A stretch of 64,000 bases of DNA from Promethearchaeota archaeon. GTDB lineage: Archaea; Asgardarchaeota; Lokiarchaeia; Sigyniarchaeales; SOKP01. The DNA lies in assembly GCA_019058445.1 (NCBI GenBank), contig JAHPZA010000006.1:1132943-1196942 (forward strand), written 5' to 3'. The position numbers and the translations under genes are program-made. Under the pieces are notes generated by a model. It saw nothing but the letters and a program-made list of their open reading frames with translations. It did no database searches and had not been told where the DNA came from. Shown piece after piece: positions 5,661 to 60,243 of the stretch; positions within the stretch are counted from its first letter, which is position 1, and the number at the start of each line of letters is the position of its first letter.

Positions 5661-5978
5661 CTAAATTGTAATAACTGCTGGTCTTCTAGATAGAGCGTGA
5701 ATTGCCTTTTTTTCTTTTGAATCTTTTTTATCCATAACTTCAATATCACATTGGTATTTTTTTTCTAGAATTGGTTTAATTTCTTGAAAGAACTGGGACT
5801 CTTCTTTAGAAGAAAGTGATATTTTAGAGTATTTCCCCACACTTTTTAGGATCTTGGCTGTAATTTGAGTAATATTTTTACCATGAGGTTTTAGATCGCT
5901 CTATTTCATGATCTTTTTCAATATTTCTCCCTGATTTCTTGTTTTATCTAGCAACGTCATTAATATACTATAGAATTT
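5661..5978 (-). pseudogene. Diverged, disabled copy of the last 105 codons of leuS
   Basis: Colinear without indels with 7166-7483 (offset 1505). Translation KFYSILMTLLDKTRNQGEILKKIMK*SDLKPHGK...RRPAVITI*; about 80/105 aa identical by hand count; internal TAG at 5901-5903; truncated at the 5' end. Confidence 0.95.
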
Positions 5979-6227
5979 TCCAACTAAAAATCAGGAATTT
6001 TTAGATAATCTCTTGATTATTGTTTCAGAATTTATTAACGAGAAGAGCCCTATTTTATATGACGATATAATTAATTTTGTTAAGCCAAAAAAGCTTATTG
6101 GTGAAAGATATACGAATTTAATAATCTAGTGTAATTTTATGAATAGGAACAGTGAATCATTTATTAAATAAAAAAATTTAGTTAAAATTTAAAATAGAAA
6201 TCCATCTATGAATTTATGTAATAAATT

Positions 6228-7165: not shown

Positions 7166-9943
7166 TTAAGCTATAACAATAGCGGGACGTCCTGGTAGTG
7201 CTTGACTTGCTTTTTTTTCTTGCGAATTATTTTCATCTACTACTTCGATATCACATTGATATTTTTTGTTGAGGATTGGTTTTATTTCTTGAAAGAATTG
7301 TAATTCTTCTTCGGGAGAGAGTGATAATTTAGAATATTTACCAACATTTTTCAGAATTTTAGCCGTAATTTGACTAATGTTTTTACCATGAGGTTTAAGA
7401 TCACTCTCTTTCATGATTTTTTTCATAATATCTCCTTGATTTCTAGTCTCGTCGAGTAGTGACATTAAAATACTGTAGAATTTAAACTTCCACTTATCTG
7501 CGATGATTATCGAGATCTTCTCCAGGGTTTCTTTCTTCATTACTAATTTGATATTATTCACATCATCAACGATATTGTTCATAAGTTTCCATTTGAAATC
7601 ACTTTCTTCAGTAAGAAGTTTTTCGTCATAGGAGGGCCATGCTGCCAAACTAGCATACTCTTTTTTGCCAATTCTCTCCCAAATTTCTTCAGTCATGTGT
7701 GGAGCAATTGGATGGAGGAGAAGCGTAAGTTTTTCCTGACATTCTTCAAAAGTGGTTTTAATTACTCCCTCATTTTTATATTTATTCAGATCAGCTGTAA
7801 ACTGAATAATATTATTCACGGCATCCCTAATTGCTATTTTTTCAAGACTTTCAGTGACAAGTTTTATGGTTTTATTTAAATTGTAAATAACAAGTGTATC
7901 TCTTATAGTTTTCTTTTTTCTTATGCTTTCTGGAGGCTCGGTAAGTAATATAAAAGTGTTTCTTATAAATTTATATGCAAATCCTACTCCCTCTTCAGAC
8001 CATTCTAATCCAGATTCGGGGCTTGCGCCAAATAAAATAAAGAATCTTGCAGCATCTGCTCCATATTCATTCATTATTTCAATGGGATCAACAGTATTTC
8101 CGTATGATTTGCTCATCTTAACACTTTTTAACACAAATTTACTGCCACATTGTTTACATGTTTCATCATGCATTTCTGCTTTCATTGCAAAGCTATTGCA
8201 TTTAGGACAGTAAGGATGAGCCTTATTTATCATACCTTGTGTCAATAAGCGTTGAAAAGGCTCATCAGATTTATGAAGCCCGAGATCTCGAGATACCTTG
8301 GTAACAAATCGGGCATAAAGGAGATGCATGATTGCATGCTCGATACCACCAATGTATTGATCCACATTCATCCAATAATTAACTATATTCTTTCTATAAG
8401 GTAATTCATCCGTTCTCGGATCACAGAATTTGATGAAATACCAAGAACTATCAACAAATGTGTCCATCGTATCTGTTTCACGTTTTGCTGCCTTGCCGCA
8501 TTTAGGGCATTTGGTATTTACAAAACTTTTGCTAGTTTCTAAAGGATTTCCTTTTCCCGTAAATTTAACATCTTTAGGTAGCTTAACGGGTAAGTCTTTA
8601 TAAGGTACAGGTACAATCCCACATTCATCGCAATATATAATAGGGATGGGACATCCCCAGTATCGTTGACGTGAAATTAACCAATCTCTCAGTTTATAAT
8701 TAATGGTTGCTTCTCCCATGCCAATCTTTTCTAATTTTTCAGTAATAGCATTAATAGCGACTCTATTTTCCATTCCATTAAATTCTTCTGAATTGACTAA
8801 GGTACCGTCTTCTTCATAAGCACGAGTCATTTTACTTAATTTCAATTCATAATCAAATGGTTGAATAACAATTTTAATAGGGATATCATATTCTTTTGCA
8901 AATTCAAAATCTCGTTGATCATGGGCAGGGACGGCCATCACTGCACCGGCACCATACTCAAAAATGACAAAATTCCCGATATAGACGGGCACTTTTTCAT
9001 TCGTCATGGGATTAATGGCATACTTTCCAATGAACATTCCTTTTTTTTCAACTTCTATATCTGTCCTCTCAAATTTGTTTTGTTTCATAACTTCCTCGTA
9101 TAAAATTTCAAAGTCTTTTTCATATTCGGTGTCTTTAACCCATTCCCTTACCCAAGGATGTTCTGGAGCGAAAACCATAAATGTCACTCCATATAATGTA
9201 TCTGGTCGAGTAGTAAAGATGTCAATCGTCCGATCCTCATCCACAATTGGAAATCTAATAATAGATCCCTCAGAACGCCCAATCCAGTTTCGTTGCATAA
9301 TCTTAACTTTCTCTGGCCAATCTACCACATTCAATCCATCTAATAACTCTTCCGCGTAGGCTCGTATTTTTAAAAACCATTGTGTCAAAAATTTTTGCTC
9401 AACATCAGAACTGCATCGCCAGCATTTACCACCTTGTACCTGCTCATTTGCCAGAACTGTATTGCATTTATTGCACCAATTAACATACGACCCTTCTCTA
9501 TATGCTAAATCTTTTTCAAGGAATTTTAAAAACAACCATTGGTCCCATTTATAATAATCAGTATCATGGCTGTAAATCATTCGCGCCCAATCATAAGAAA
9601 GTCCAATTCGCTTTTGTTGTTTTATGATTGCATCTATATTCGAATCTGTCCATTCTTCAGGATTTTCTCCATGGTCGATGGCGGCGTTCTCTGCGGGCAT
9701 ACCGAATGAATCATACCCCATGGGATATAGTACGTTGAATCCCCGCATTCGCTTAAATCTGGCGTAACTATCGCCTATTGAATAATTTCTTAGATGACCT
9801 ATATGAAGATGAGAGCTAGGATAGGGATACATTTCAAGAACATAGAATTTTTCTTTCTTCTCTTCTTTAACCTCAAATATTTTATCTTTTTCCCATTTTT
9901 CCTGCCATTTATTTTCGATTTTTTGAAAATCATATTCAACCAT
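7166..9943 (-). CDS. leuS: Leucyl-tRNA synthetase (bacterial-type core, archaeal-type C-terminal domain)
   Basis: MYPYPSSHLHIGH (HIGH), CP1 editing FTTRPDT/GAGAVMAVPAHDQRD, ISRQRYWG, GGIEHA, KMSKS; C-terminus KASQALPGRPAIVIA. Confidence 0.98.
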   Translation of the reverse strand: MVEYDFQKIENKWQEKWEKDKIFEVKEEKKEKFYVLEMYPYPSSHLHIGHLRNYSIGDSYARFKRMRGFNVLYPMGYDSFGMPAENAAIDHGENPEEWTDSNIDAIIKQQKRIGLSYDWARMIYSHDTDYYKWDQWLFLKFLEKDLAYREGSYVNWCNKCNTVLANEQVQGGKCWRCSSDVEQKFLTQWFLKIRAYAEELLDGLNVVDWPEKVKIMQRNWIGRSEGSIIRFPIVDEDRTIDIFTTRPDTLYGVTFMVFAPEHPWVREWVKDTEYEKDFEILYEEVMKQNKFERTDIEVEKKGMFIGKYAINPMTNEKVPVYIGNFVIFEYGAGAVMAVPAHDQRDFEFAKEYDIPIKIVIQPFDYELKLSKMTRAYEEDGTLVNSEEFNGMENRVAINAITEKLEKIGMGEATINYKLRDWLISRQRYWGCPIPIIYCDECGIVPVPYKDLPVKLPKDVKFTGKGNPLETSKSFVNTKCPKCGKAAKRETDTMDTFVDSSWYFIKFCDPRTDELPYRKNIVNYWMNVDQYIGGIEHAIMHLLYARFVTKVSRDLGLHKSDEPFQRLLTQGMINKAHPYCPKCNSFAMKAEMHDETCKQCGSKFVLKSVKMSKSYGNTVDPIEIMNEYGADAARFFILFGASPESGLEWSEEGVGFAYKFIRNTFILLTEPPESIRKKKTIRDTLVIYNLNKTIKLVTESLEKIAIRDAVNNIIQFTADLNKYKNEGVIKTTFEECQEKLTLLLHPIAPHMTEEIWERIGKKEYASLAAWPSYDEKLLTEESDFKWKLMNNIVDDVNNIKLVMKKETLEKISIIIADKWKFKFYSILMSLLDETRNQGDIMKKIMKESDLKPHGKNISQITAKILKNVGKYSKLSLSPEEELQFFQEIKPILNKKYQCDIEVVDENNSQEKKASQALPGRPAIVIA

Positions 9944-10138
9944 TATAATCTAACTCACTCTTTTCAAATTTTGTAATAAAATACTTTTGTTTTGTGTTTT
10001 ATTGTTTTTATTTTTTTCACTTTCACGATTTCAAGTCAGCTGCGTAATAATCACTGACCTCTTTTTAGTATAATCTACACACGGAGCAAACAAATCCGTA
10101 GTAAGGTTTTAAAAAGAGGTTAGATTTGCTTGCTTGCT
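9944..10138 (-). promoter_or_regulatory. Structured leuS 5' leader (candidate attenuator switch)
   Basis: Complementary segment pairs: 10122-10134 with 10085-10097 (13 bp incl. 2 G-U); 10110-10123 with 10054-10067 (13/14); 10054-10060 with 10033-10039 (7 bp); 10112-10126 with 9947-9964 (15 bp plus a 3-nt bulge, over the SD-like GAGUGA). Confidence 0.75.
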
Positions 10139-10195
10139 TTATAATAATAATAATAGAACTTTGTTAAGAAATTGTAAACTTAATGAGTTCTTCAT
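10139..10195 (-). CDS. Leu-rich leader peptide MKNSLSLQFLNKVLLLLL (alternative start 10213 adds MISNNN)
   Basis: 8 of 18 codons are Leu; ends CTA TTA TTA TTA TTA TAA; lies on the same strand 195 nt upstream of the leuS ATG. Confidence 0.7.
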   Translation of the reverse strand: MKNSLSLQFLNKVLLLLL

Positions 10196-10238
10196 ATTAT
10201 TATTTGAAATCATGATTATATTCGATAAAATATTATGA

Positions 10239-10255
10239 ATTATAAATTTTTTCCT
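10239..10255 (-). promoter_or_regulatory. BRE/TATA promoter candidate for the leuS leader transcript
   Basis: Minus strand AGGAAAAAA-TTTATAAT, ending about 26 nt before ATG 10213, which would give a near-leaderless uORF. Confidence 0.55.
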
Positions 10256-10334
10256 ATTATAATCGATTTTTATGTTTATTTTATAATTTTTTGGAAAAAA
10301 GCTTTTTTTCACAGAAAAACTAATTAAAATAAGG

Positions 10335-11330
10335 ATGATTAAGAACATACGAGTTTCTATTGGAAGTGCCTCGGTATTAGGATTGGTTTCGAAACAATTT
10401 CCCATACCTCCAACAACATGTTATATAATGACATATAAAGAAGGACACTGTATAGCGAATTGTGGCTTTTGTCCTCAAGCGAGGGAATCAAGAAGTTCTA
10501 TCGAAAAACTCTCACGTATAACATGGCCAGTTTTTCCTTTTAAAGAGTTTCTCACAAAATTGACTTATATGCCCCCTTCGAAAAGATTTAAGAGAATTTG
10601 TATTCAAACTCTTAATTATAAAGAAAATTTTAAAGATTTAAGAGAAATTATTACCCAAATCAAGAACAATTCAAATATACCCATTTCTGTTGCAATTCCA
10701 CCTATATCAAAAGAGAAACTAAAGGAATTATACGTGATGGGCGTTCAAAGAGTAGGTATTGCATTAGACGGGGCGACATCAGAGATTTTTGATAAAATTA
10801 AGGGAAAAGGTGTTAAAGGACCTTATAATTGGGAACATCATATGGAATGTTTAAAATATGCCTTAGAAACCTTTCCTGAGGGATCTGTTACAACTCATGT
10901 GATTGTCGGATTAGGTGAGACTGAAAAAGACCTTCTTAAATTAATTAAAAATTTGAGGGATTTAGATATCCTCGTTTCACTATTTGCCTTCACACCTATA
11001 AAAGGTACCAGATTTGAACATCTTCCTCAACCAGAATTAATTAAATTTAGAAAAGTTCAACTAAGTCGATATCTCATATTAGTGGAAGCTAAAGAAGTTC
11101 AAGATTTTGCTTTTAACCAAGAGGGGAGTTTAGTTAACATTAATATTAGTAAGCAAAAATTAAAAAATATAATTGATGATACAGATGCGTTTTTAACTTC
11201 GGGTTGTCCCGGGTGTAATAGACCATACTATACTTCTCGTCCATCTGGTCCAATATATAATTATCCGAGAAAATTAAGCGAAAAAGAAAAAGAAGAAATT
11301 TATAAATTATTAGAAAAATATGTGATTTAA
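10335..11330 (+). CDS. lipS2: Archaeal-type lipoate synthase component LipS2 (radical SAM)
   Basis: CIANCGFC radical SAM motif; C-terminal TSGCPGCNRP signature; adjacent to a lipoate ligase. Confidence 0.85.
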   Translation: MIKNIRVSIGSASVLGLVSKQFPIPPTTCYIMTYKEGHCIANCGFCPQARESRSSIEKLSRITWPVFPFKEFLTKLTYMPPSKRFKRICIQTLNYKENFKDLREIITQIKNNSNIPISVAIPPISKEKLKELYVMGVQRVGIALDGATSEIFDKIKGKGVKGPYNWEHHMECLKYALETFPEGSVTTHVIVGLGETEKDLLKLIKNLRDLDILVSLFAFTPIKGTRFEHLPQPELIKFRKVQLSRYLILVEAKEVQDFAFNQEGSLVNINISKQKLKNIIDDTDAFLTSGCPGCNRPYYTSRPSGPIYNYPRKLSEKEKEEIYKLLEKYVI

Positions 11331-58255: not shown

Positions 58256-59737
58256 CTATTTGGTCCCATTAAAGTATTTTCTAATTAAATGTTTTATTTT
58301 TAAATATGAATTAACGGAATAAAGAAATCGAATCGGATTCAAAATGAAAAAAATACCGCGTGATTTTATAATTCGCGGGAAAAATATTTTCCAATTTTTA
58401 AGATATGTATGTTCTTTAAAAGAATAATATAAGAGTTCAAACAATTTTCTCGATTCTAACTCATGAGTTTTGATTACGGGATTAAGTAAAGTATATTTAG
58501 ACCAATCTCTAGTGACTATAAGATCTTTTTCTTCTAATTCTTTTAAAATCTCGGTTCCTGGAAATGGAGTTAAAATACTGGAAACTAGTATATCTACATC
58601 AACTTTCTTCATAAATCTTATTTCTTTTATTATATCATCTTCAGAAGCGTTTAAATCATACCCGATTATCATACTTCCAAGTACAATTATATTATTATCG
58701 TGTAATATTTTAAGTGCTTTTAAGACCTTATTAAATGTTAATCCCTTTCTCATATCTTTTAGCGTTTCTTCACGAACGCTCTCAATTCCTATTAAAACAA
58801 TCCAAAATCCCGCTTCAGCCATTTTTTTTACCATTTGAGGAGATTTTACCACAGAATCTACTCTAATCTGAGCAAAAAAACTCAGATTATTTATTTGCTT
58901 AGTTCTTTTGCATTCAATTATTCTTTCGCATAGTAATTCAATTCTTTTGGTATTAGCGGTTAAATTGTCGTCCACAAATAATATATCAGTAATTTTTTTA
59001 TTTTGAGAAATCATTTTTAATTCATTAATTATTTTTTCAATTGGTCGAGGCCTCCATAATCTTTTGTTAAAATTAGGAGTACAGCAAAATTTACAGTTAT
59101 GAGGGCAACCTCTTGATGTCTCTACCGTTTCTACTCTCACAGTAAAAATTTTATATTTATTATTTTTTGTAAGATGTCTTGCGGGATACCTTATATTTTC
59201 AAAATCTTTAATTAGCTCTCTATCAGGATTATGTATAATTCTTCCATCGGATTTAAAAGAAATTCCTTTTACATTTTCGGGAGTTCCTTTTAGAATCAAT
59301 TCTCTAAATGTTAACTCTCCTTCACCCCTAACAACAATATCAACCTCATCAACTTTTAACGTTTCAACAGCTCTATATGAAGGATGCCGACCTCCAAATA
59401 CGACTATACAATTTGGATTATTTCTTTTTACTATTTTTGCAATATCATAACATGTATTAATTACTGCTGACACAAAAACAGTAATTCCTACGAGATCTGG
59501 ATTAATTTCTTTTATTTTTTTCTTTATTTGCTTATAACTTAAATTATTTACTTTTGTATCGAGAATTTCCACCTCAATATTTAAATCATTTAAATAACTG
59601 GCAATATAGGTTAAATTTAATGGTGGTAAATCCATAGGAGCAAAAAAATAATCTGTATTACCAAAGTGATAATTTGGCTTAACTAATAGGATTTTTCTCC
59701 ATCTGAGGTTTATTTTAGAAGGAATTTCAATGCTCAT
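58256..59737 (-). CDS. B12-binding radical SAM protein
   Basis: PPLNLTYIAS, GGRHPS, GEGE, ETSRGCPHNCKFC, VDDN, GIES, PFPGT. Confidence 0.93.
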   Translation of the reverse strand: MSIEIPSKINLRWRKILLVKPNYHFGNTDYFFAPMDLPPLNLTYIASYLNDLNIEVEILDTKVNNLSYKQIKKKIKEINPDLVGITVFVSAVINTCYDIAKIVKRNNPNCIVVFGGRHPSYRAVETLKVDEVDIVVRGEGELTFRELILKGTPENVKGISFKSDGRIIHNPDRELIKDFENIRYPARHLTKNNKYKIFTVRVETVETSRGCPHNCKFCCTPNFNKRLWRPRPIEKIINELKMISQNKKITDILFVDDNLTANTKRIELLCERIIECKRTKQINNLSFFAQIRVDSVVKSPQMVKKMAEAGFWIVLIGIESVREETLKDMRKGLTFNKVLKALKILHDNNIIVLGSMIIGYDLNASEDDIIKEIRFMKKVDVDILVSSILTPFPGTEILKELEEKDLIVTRDWSKYTLLNPVIKTHELESRKLFELLYYSFKEHTYLKNWKIFFPRIIKSRGIFFILNPIRFLYSVNSYLKIKHLIRKYFNGTK

Positions 59738-60090
59738 TTTAATATCTCAATCCTATTTTTAAAATTATTAAAATTTTCCTTTCGTTAAAAAATCCAAATA
59801 CTTTAAGCGGATTATTATTATCCTTAAAATTTTTTCATCTATTCCGTTAATTGAAAAATGTTGTATAATATCTCATATTAATCTTCTTCTTTCCTTGCTC
59901 TTAATATTTTAACACATGACTTTTGATTCTAGCTATAATATGGAATAATTTTTGAATTTCTGGGGAGATTCCTCATTTTTTAGTATTTGAGGGTTAATAA
60001 ATGAAAAAATAATATATAAATATTTAAATTTTTACTTTTCCATAAGCGAAAATTATCCCCTTTTTTTGCTTATTGAGCAATTTTTCTCTG

Positions 60091-60243
60091 AATTTTTCTA
60101 TAAGCACATTTGATAGAGAAATTTTTATCATATTATTCTTAAAATGCTAAGTAAATTTTATCTGAAATTTAATGAACATATCAGTCAGAGTTTTATTCTG
60201 TTATTTTAGTAAGTTTTTAATAAATTAAATTTTTTTGTTAAAG
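60091..60243 (+). repeat. Direct repeat copy 2 (contains the stub MIKISLSNVLIEKF of the SWIM gene)
   Basis: Near-identical to 57965-58118; the stub frame diverges after EKF and stops about 22 codons later. Confidence 0.95.

Follow-up and report, generated by a model that had tools for sequence, protein, structure and literature searches.

The window analysed here is a 64,000-nucleotide (nt) stretch of the genome of a Promethearchaeota archaeon (4,611,789 bases, 31% GC), and our subject is the region upstream of leuS, the gene for leucyl-tRNA synthetase (LeuRS). The gene occupies 7166-9943 on the reverse strand and encodes a protein of 925 amino acids (aa) that matches TIGR00396 with 956 bits and joins a bacterial-type body to an archaeal-type C-terminal domain. 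Immediately upstream, at 9944-10255, lie a promoter, a small reading frame that ends in a run of leucine codons, and a set of RNA segments with two alternative pairings. We put the probability that this region acts in cis on the leuS mRNA, as a leader that responds to leucine, at roughly 80%, judging from comparison with related sequences and from RNA folding. This is also the core of a preliminary description of the stretch, made from its letters alone, which proposed a leucine-sensing leader peptide with a switch between two RNA helices. That part of the proposal holds up. A further helix (S4:S5) is not conserved, and the termination step that it allowed for found no support.

All features described here are read on the reverse strand. 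A purine run resembling a B recognition element (BRE) together with a TATA box (TTTATAAT, 10239-10254; purines 10254-10247, TATA 10246-10239) stands 33 nt upstream of the ATG of the small frame, and this spacing is kept in relatives. The frame, (MISNNN)MKNSLSLQFLNKVLLLLL*, spans 10139-10213 (ATG 10213-10211, TAA 10141-10139) and has 24 codons plus the stop, 75 nt in all. Its last five sense codons, CTA TTA TTA TTA TTA (10142-10156), all encode leucine and directly abut the stop, as in relatives, and 195 nt separate the stop from the leuS ATG at 9943. Frame, TATA box and leucine run were thus correctly placed at the outset, but the start had to be moved to the first ATG: a second ATG (10195-10193) reads ACG in several relatives, which leaves the first one as the conserved start. 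An 88-aa open reading frame (ORF) listed at 10139-10405 was dismissed as an artefact, since its open frame runs into the divergent radical S-adenosylmethionine (radical-SAM) gene at 10335-11330.

The Loki-type motif AAAAAATTTAT lies 31-36 nt upstream of the leader-frame ATG in 12 leaders. An archaeal TATA box is usually found about 25-30 nt upstream of the transcription start, and the two distances together place the start of the transcript 0-5 nt upstream of the ATG. Going by this spacing, the leuS mRNA probably begins with the small frame and would be leaderless, or nearly so, and we infer that the frame is translated. Relatives that have no leader carry the same promoter motif (AAAAAATTTAT / AAAAAAATTTAT) about 78 nt upstream of the leuS ATG, with no small frame in between; this short type of upstream region is the one found at most Lokiarchaeial leuS genes.

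The preliminary description had pointed to conservation in related genomes as a check, and the leucine-run frame is indeed conserved upstream of related leuS genes. We sampled the leuS upstream regions of 40 relatives, 80 species genomes and 80 metagenome contigs and found the leader in 13 sequences that form two clades. Clade A has 11 leaders (L001, L002, L006, L031, L139, L143, L151, L152, L167, L188 and L204), belonging to LeuRS proteins whose N-termini are 74-100% identical to the product of the window gene. Their peptides begin with MIS(N/S)NN in 10 of 11 cases, keep the frame open and end in four to six leucines. Clade B (L011 and L109) belongs to another genus, and its peptides end ...VVVLLLLL and ...VVVLLLVL. 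Across the leaders the run is written with TTA, TTG, CTA, CTT and CTC and the stop with TAA, TAG and TGA, so that the codons turn over while their meaning stays. Leucine is encoded by 66 of the 68 run codons in the 13 leaders, and 17 of the 19 departures from TTA are to other leucine codons, although only two of the nine possible single-base changes of TTA keep leucine. With the kinship of the leaders taken into account, the synonymous departures may come down to eight or nine independent events, compared with two for the others.

The distance between leader and gene varies among these sequences. In L152 only about 50 A-rich nt lie between the structured part and the Shine-Dalgarno sequence of leuS, so a second promoter has no room there. 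L151 (503-790) and L204 have about 120 extra nt between the switch and leuS, and this extra stretch looks like the promoter that leuS ordinarily has in relatives without the leader. At the level of sequence this suggests that the two carry tandem promoters, one regulated and one unregulated.

A run of TTA codons is easily produced in DNA of this base composition, and the 3-nt length variants of the run that occur in metagenome contigs are what a TTA microsatellite would give. Chance, with a microsatellite and fortuitous complementarity in AT-rich DNA, is nevertheless barely credible as an account of the leader. Five or more leucine codons followed by a stop occur 25 times in the whole genome in six frames, and only four times outside ORFs of at least 100 aa. 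Two of these four intergenic strings sit upstream of leuS and of leuA; the remaining two have no in-frame ATG and no leucine-related gene downstream. For a 300-nt window upstream of leuS on the same strand, the expected number of such strings is about 0.001. When 155 distinct leuS upstream regions were searched for runs of at least four identical residues followed by a stop, leucine runs were found 12 times and phenylalanine runs once, with none for other AT-favoured residues and none on the antisense strand. The whole 331-nt leader also folds more stably than dinucleotide shuffles (z = -3.0). The mixed leucine codons of the relatives, the covariation of both helices described below and the recurrence of the RNA in 48 genomes all count against chance as well, and the leucine-run leader is not explained by it.

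Downstream of the small frame are the segments that make up the switch. S1 (10122-10134), the 5' arm of a hairpin next to the stop whose helix can start at 10137, pairs with S3 (10085-10097), the 3' arm; this pairing is found in the alignments, by folding and by RNAalifold. S2 (10110-10123) is pyrimidine-rich, contains five consecutive uridines (10115-10111) and overlaps S1 by 2 nt; in the alignments it pairs with S4 (10054-10067), which is purine-rich and contains GAGGU. S1:S3 has 13 pairs, two of them G-U, and its base sits 2-5 nt after the stop of the frame, and S2:S4 has 14 pairs with one A-C mismatch. Because S1:S3 and S2:S4 share nucleotides they are mutually exclusive, and a pseudoknot is implausible on steric grounds, since it would need both helices, of 13-14 base pairs (bp) each, without any linker joining S1 to S2. 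These segments, and S5 (10033-10039) as a further partner of S4, have the positions and pairings originally proposed.

Both competing helices are supported by compensatory changes. In an alignment of the 13 leaders (A1), S1:S3 and S2:S4 together are 88.5% paired, against 38-48% in controls in which the pairing was slid along the sequence; nine pairs have changed on both sides, against zero to two in the slid controls, and none of 500 shuffles reaches the observed values. A second alignment of 29 sequences (A4) was made with a covariance model that contains no S2:S4 pairing. Here S1:S3 is 94.2% paired, with 6 of its 13 pairs changed on both sides, and S2:S4 is 76.8% paired (84.4% in its core), against 37-56% in slid controls. 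Within the S2:S4 core, 22 cells have a change on both sides, against four or five in the controls. In L151 and L152 a C in the overlap of S1 and S2 has become U, and its partners in S3 and S4 have both become A, as is predicted if the two helices alternate.

Folding agrees with an order of events in which S1:S3 comes first. When the nascent RNA reaches 62 nt past the stop, S1:S3 is the minimum-energy fold in all 13 leaders; once S4 has been added, 9 of the 11 clade-A leaders have S2:S4 as their equilibrium fold. Folding under a ribosome constraint had been suggested from the start as a check, and a mask over the 10 nt that follow the stop switches the predicted fold to S2:S4 in all 11 clade-A leaders. 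RNAalifold on ten full leaders finds three helices, namely a 14-bp S1:S3, a pairing of S0 with S6, and a pairing of the asparagine codons with the leucine run. S0 (GAUUUCAA, 10204-10211) covers codons 1-3, and S6 (UUGAAAUC, 10027-10034) lies within the conserved motif GCUUUCUUGAAAUC. Their pairing, GAUUUC with GAAAUC, is present in nine of the ten sequences and is invariant, without covariation. The asparagine codons (UAAUAAUA, 10195-10202) can pair with the leucine run (UAUUAUUA, about 10142-10155), and this is kept in all ten aligned clade-A leaders; the conservation of MISNNN down to its nucleotides may have its reason here.

Two further pairings were discarded. S5 pairs with S4 in this genome only: S4:S5 is in the minimum-energy fold at this locus, but the S5 segment varies in relatives without compensation, so that S4:S5 is not a conserved helix. 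The GCUUUC motif could form an outer helix with the nucleotides just behind the stop, but only three to eight of the eight pairs are present, depending on the sequence, and the helix is too weak. The stretch from 10020 to 9970 is an A-rich, U-poor spacer that is predicted, from its composition and from folding, to be unstructured.

The RNA is not confined to the leuS genes with which we began. A covariance model built from A1 with S1:S3 as its only helix (E <= 0.001) matches 48 of the 135 genomes of the family, in 9 of its 13 genera, and the best 21 matches precede three kinds of gene: bacterial-type leuS, archaeal-type leuS and a conserved acidic ORF of 45 aa. In the archaeal-type case, where the locus holds the N-terminal half of the gene (NF008957, 624 bits), the peptides end ...LLLAVLLL or ...LLIALLLLL. 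Leaders with a leucine-run frame upstream of archaeal-type leuS were seen at L229, L233 and L236 (genomes G093, G128 and G084), all in other genera; the genera with this arrangement hold two LeuRS types, and the genome of the window holds the bacterial type only. Upstream of the 45-aa ORF the leader peptides are rich in valine and leucine.

The genome studied here has a second copy of S1-S4, outside the window (G000:C6:889122-889268, +; L241:369-733), which scores 112.5 bits. Its S1-S4 are nearly identical to those of the leuS leader, and its 24-codon frame, probably leaderless like that of leuS, ends ...VVVLVVVL. The 45-aa ORF that follows has a strong GAGGUG Shine-Dalgarno sequence and is conserved in many genera; it belongs to no Pfam or NCBIfam family and falls only in unnamed Atlas clusters. 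One chassis thus carries a codon run that changes with the gene, and it serves two unrelated LeuRS types, which points to the codons as what confers specificity.

This bears on two readings in which the codons matter less. The RNA could be an operator for a protein or a tRNA, for instance one bound by LeuRS itself, in the manner of E. coli thrS, or a T-box-like tRNA sensor, with the small frame secondary. Two conserved helices with a large loop would suit such an operator, and autoregulation of aminoacyl-tRNA synthetases (aaRS) by leader binding is established in bacteria. We nonetheless think it very unlikely, given that the same RNA precedes an ORF unrelated to LeuRS, where the run is of valine and leucine and again points to the codons for specificity, and that the leucine identity of the run survives synonymous change. 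A cmscan search of 9500-10800 against Rfam with E up to 10 found neither Leu_leader nor T-box, and the best match in the leader was mir-259 with 15.8 bits (gathering score 50); a tRNA scan found no match.

The small frame could also encode a functional hydrophobic micro-protein whose position upstream of leuS is incidental, and the peptides of clade B and those associated with the 45-aa ORF, rich in valine and leucine, do form long hydrophobic stretches. The peptides of clade A, however, are polar except for their last six residues, and conservation is limited to the terminal run and to the N-terminal MISNN, where an RNA pairing overlaps the frame. Such a micro-protein would leave unexplained the two unrelated LeuRS types, leuA, and the cognate tryptophan and isoleucine cases that follow, and we rate it as less probable still than an operator.

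A search for cognate-codon frames upstream of further genes of this genome, suggested for synthetase genes at the outset, was positive for biosynthesis genes and negative for the other synthetases checked. When 2886 small ATG frames in intergenic DNA ahead of a gene on the same strand were ranked for enrichment in any one residue (binomial), three cognate cases ranked high. Rank 2, with 6 tryptophans in 18 codons (G000:C6:1236705-1236761, -), lies outside the window, 164 nt upstream of a TrpB-like gene, trpB2 (NF009057, 638 bits). Rank 8, with 13 isoleucines in 22 codons (G000:C9:413878-413946, +; also outside the window), lies 117 nt upstream of the citramalate synthase gene cimA (TIGR00977, 672 bits), and in the minimum-energy fold of this leader a CU-rich tract is paired with the GGAGG ribosome-binding site. 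Rank 13, with 15 leucines in 37 codons, lies upstream of leuA. All three frames have the same TATA-to-ATG spacing as the leuS leader. Citramalate synthase opens the pathway from pyruvate to isoleucine, so that the paralogous synthases CimA and LeuA are each preceded by a putative leader rich in the amino acid that their pathway makes. Four other class I aaRS genes of the genome were checked and have no cognate-codon frame upstream; two of them have a tRNA-like sequence there.

The leuA gene is monocistronic and encodes a 2-isopropylmalate synthase of 537 aa (NF002085, 581.8 bits, cut-off 517; 58553-60166 of its contig, L111:848-2667). Its leader frame (G000:C4:58346-58459, +) has 37 codons, the last seven of which encode leucine, lies 93 nt upstream of the gene and is kept in 19 of 27 relatives from several genera and two families. 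Per-sequence folds give a single long hairpin, from 1-6 to 59-63 nt after the stop, with energies of -12 to -29 kcal/mol. A count of its pairs gave 71.8% paired against about 49%, and RNAalifold on a MAFFT alignment of the leuA leaders gave no pairs. The hairpin ends 34-40 nt upstream of the AUG and stays off the ribosome-binding site.

Taken together, these observations leave room for the reading that a single Lokiarchaeial family of genomes has a modular kit of leaderless leader-peptide switches, which is, in our judgement, an even call. The S1-S4 chassis would be present in at least 48 of 135 genomes, with the run swapped according to the gene (leucine for two unrelated LeuRS types, valine and leucine for the 45-aa protein), beside separate leucine, isoleucine and tryptophan leaders for leuA, cimA and trpB2, and without an intrinsic terminator.

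For the leuS leader the following sequence of events can be proposed. The transcript would start a few nucleotides upstream of the ATG at 10213, and a ribosome would load at the 5' end and translate the 24 codons. As the RNA is made, S1:S3 would form first, with S2:S4 as its exclusive alternative. When charged tRNA-Leu is scarce, the ribosome would dwell on the terminal leucine codons with its leading edge over the base of S1; S1:S3 could then not form, S4 would capture S2, and the leuS ribosome-binding site would be free (ON). When leucine is plentiful, the ribosome would terminate and leave, S1:S3 would form and keep S2 from S4, and S4 would fold locally. At this locus the junction of S1 and S2 would then pair with the leuS ribosome-binding site (OFF, or low). 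This exact wiring, in which stalling leads to S2:S4 and release to S1:S3, is a working guess that we hold tentatively, with somewhat less than even confidence.

The same sensor could be wired in the opposite direction, as in E. coli trp. A ribosome held early would leave S1 free, and S1:S3 would be the ON state, acting like an anti-terminator; a ribosome at the stop would mask S1, and S2:S4 would be the OFF state, acting through termination or RNA cleavage in the U-rich stretch after S4, while the U-tract of S2 would be a pause site for RNA polymerase that keeps polymerase and ribosome in step. An archaeal ribosome footprint is about 27 nt (PMC7261190), and a ribosome of this size covers S1 only when its A site is on the last two leucine codons or on the stop; the geometry therefore makes a trp-like reverse wiring possible. 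It would also make sense of a U/C-rich tract that all leaders have 20-45 nt after the stop, at the position of S2, and that goes beyond what pairing with S4 needs. Two features of clade A also speak for it: U is more frequent in the 25 nt that follow S4 than elsewhere in the leader, and most of the leaders prefer S2:S4 at equilibrium. On the other side, clade B has no U-run after S4, the complementarity of 19 bp between S2 and the ribosome-binding site at this locus would be left without a role, and the single-hairpin leuA leaders have no second helix to serve as a terminator. Four kinds of leader, more than 30 in all, have a run that abuts the stop or is at most one codon away from it, an arrangement that favours direct occlusion of S1. 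We therefore keep the direction originally proposed as our best guess and consider the reverse one unlikely, if far from negligible.

The sensor is well supported, and how it would act on leuS is less so. The switch may control the initiation of leuS translation, the premature end of transcription or the decay of the RNA. The leuS ribosome-binding region (9947-9968, with the Shine-Dalgarno sequence GAGUGAG at 9960-9954) is complementary to the S1/S2 junction and S2 (10126-10108) over 8 + 11 bp, 19 bp in all, with an energy of -17.8 kcal/mol, and the whole leader, folded at minimum energy, contains this pairing. Of 1500 ribosome-binding-site windows of the genome, only one (0.07%) pairs as well. 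That S2 blocks the leuS ribosome-binding site, as first suggested, thus has strong support in silico at this locus but not as a general feature of the family: the complementarity is strong also in L151 (0.13%) and moderate in L006 and L143, and across leaders the equilibrium accessibility of the ribosome-binding site shows no consistent change under a ribosome mask. General sequestration of the ribosome-binding site in this RNA family was rejected on these two grounds, mostly background complementarity and inconsistent accessibility. S4 itself resembles the leuS ribosome-binding site and could act as a decoy for it.

The preliminary description also allowed for termination at a U-tract, and this found no support, there being no helix followed by a U-run. 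The sole U-tract is the U5 within S2, which lies in the loop of S1:S3. A scan with sigma-70 promoter and terminator consensus sequences, which is uninformative for an archaeon, detected nothing terminator-like in the leader and gave no more hits than shuffles did.

Several observations weigh against a leucine-responsive leader, or against parts of its mechanism. The leader is absent from most Lokiarchaeial leuS genes, including some in genomes of the same genus, and therefore is not essential to leuS control. In clade B the leader peptides are also valine-rich and resemble transmembrane helices. Beyond the relatives named above, and in the paralogues, complementarity between S2 and the ribosome-binding site is at background. 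No U-run follows S3 or S4 at this locus, so that a classical intrinsic terminator is absent, and with a footprint of about 27 nt a ribosome halted on any of the first three leucine codons stops short of S1. The leader sequences are related to one another, and the shuffle controls therefore overstate significance. In a search of public runs (19 DNA runs and one metatranscriptome), the metatranscriptome contigs matched to 9700-10400 come from relatives at less than 95% identity and cover only the coding part of leuS and an A-rich patch, leaving the leader uncovered.

By family models the LeuRS encoded downstream is a mosaic, in which residues 4-810 resemble the bacterial equivalog TIGR00396 and residues 607-924 the C-terminal part of the archaeal NF008957. 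It is the sole LeuRS found in the genome, which is 92.6% complete and has no archaeal-type LeuRS above the cut-off. We had considered that leuS might be an auxiliary copy and rejected this, since no second LeuRS to which it could be auxiliary was found in the genome. A copy of the C-terminal part (aa 820-923, 77% identical, with one in-frame TAG) lies at 5670-5981 on the same strand, about 1.2 kb downstream of the intact gene. Close relatives of leuS are all deposited as metagenome-assembled genomes of Promethearchaeota or other Asgard archaea, which confirms the (Asgard) archaeal host that had been guessed from the letters.

Leader-peptide attenuation is a textbook bacterial mechanism. Seliverstov et al. 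(2005, PMC1262725) predicted classical attenuators upstream of leuS and trpS in Streptomyces and cite the E. coli pheM-pheST attenuator. These systems share with the Asgard leader a cognate-codon frame upstream of an aaRS gene, alternative helices and presumed stalling at hungry codons. They are bacterial, however, and consist of an antiterminator/terminator pair with a poly-U tract, whereas the Asgard leader has no helix followed by a U-run, is probably leaderless, has a run that abuts the stop and works with archaeal RNA polymerase and termination machinery. The enterobacterial leuL, hisL, pheL and trpL leaders (Rfam Leu_leader and relatives) likewise have a cognate run near the C-terminus of a peptide of 15-30 codons, exclusive pairings from the stop codon on, and a set of sister leaders, for different amino acids, within a genome. 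The Asgard leader differs from them in having no sequence or Rfam similarity and no intrinsic terminator. The order of its helices also differs: they are interleaved in Asgard leuS (S1:S3, S2:S4) and consecutive in enterobacteria (1:2, 2:3, 3:4), and the Asgard leuA version is a single long hairpin.

Leaderless leader peptides have precedents in bacteria too. Deinococcus deserti has them for aaRS and biosynthesis genes (PMC4007540), and mycobacteria have leaderless polycysteine short ORFs (bioRxiv 10.1101/834739). In D. deserti the transcript starts have been mapped, whereas the Asgard start is deduced from promoter spacing. A full-text literature search found no paper on leader-peptide attenuation in archaea. 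The principle is therefore common to the bacterial attenuators; what sets the Asgard leader apart is the archaeal host, the lack of a terminator, the interleaved helices and the swappable codon run.

With a terminator absent, the output step may be one that has not yet been described for attenuators, and the leaders, if our reading is true, would offer compact parts for testing in tractable archaea. They would also provide a rare piece of predicted regulatory logic for the uncultivated Lokiarchaeia, one that spans leucine, isoleucine and tryptophan biosynthesis as well as LeuRS. Asgard archaea would then sense amino-acid supply through the dwell time of a ribosome on a leaderless mini-frame, which would bear on whether the lineage closest to eukaryotes couples transcription, translation and RNA folding, and in what way.

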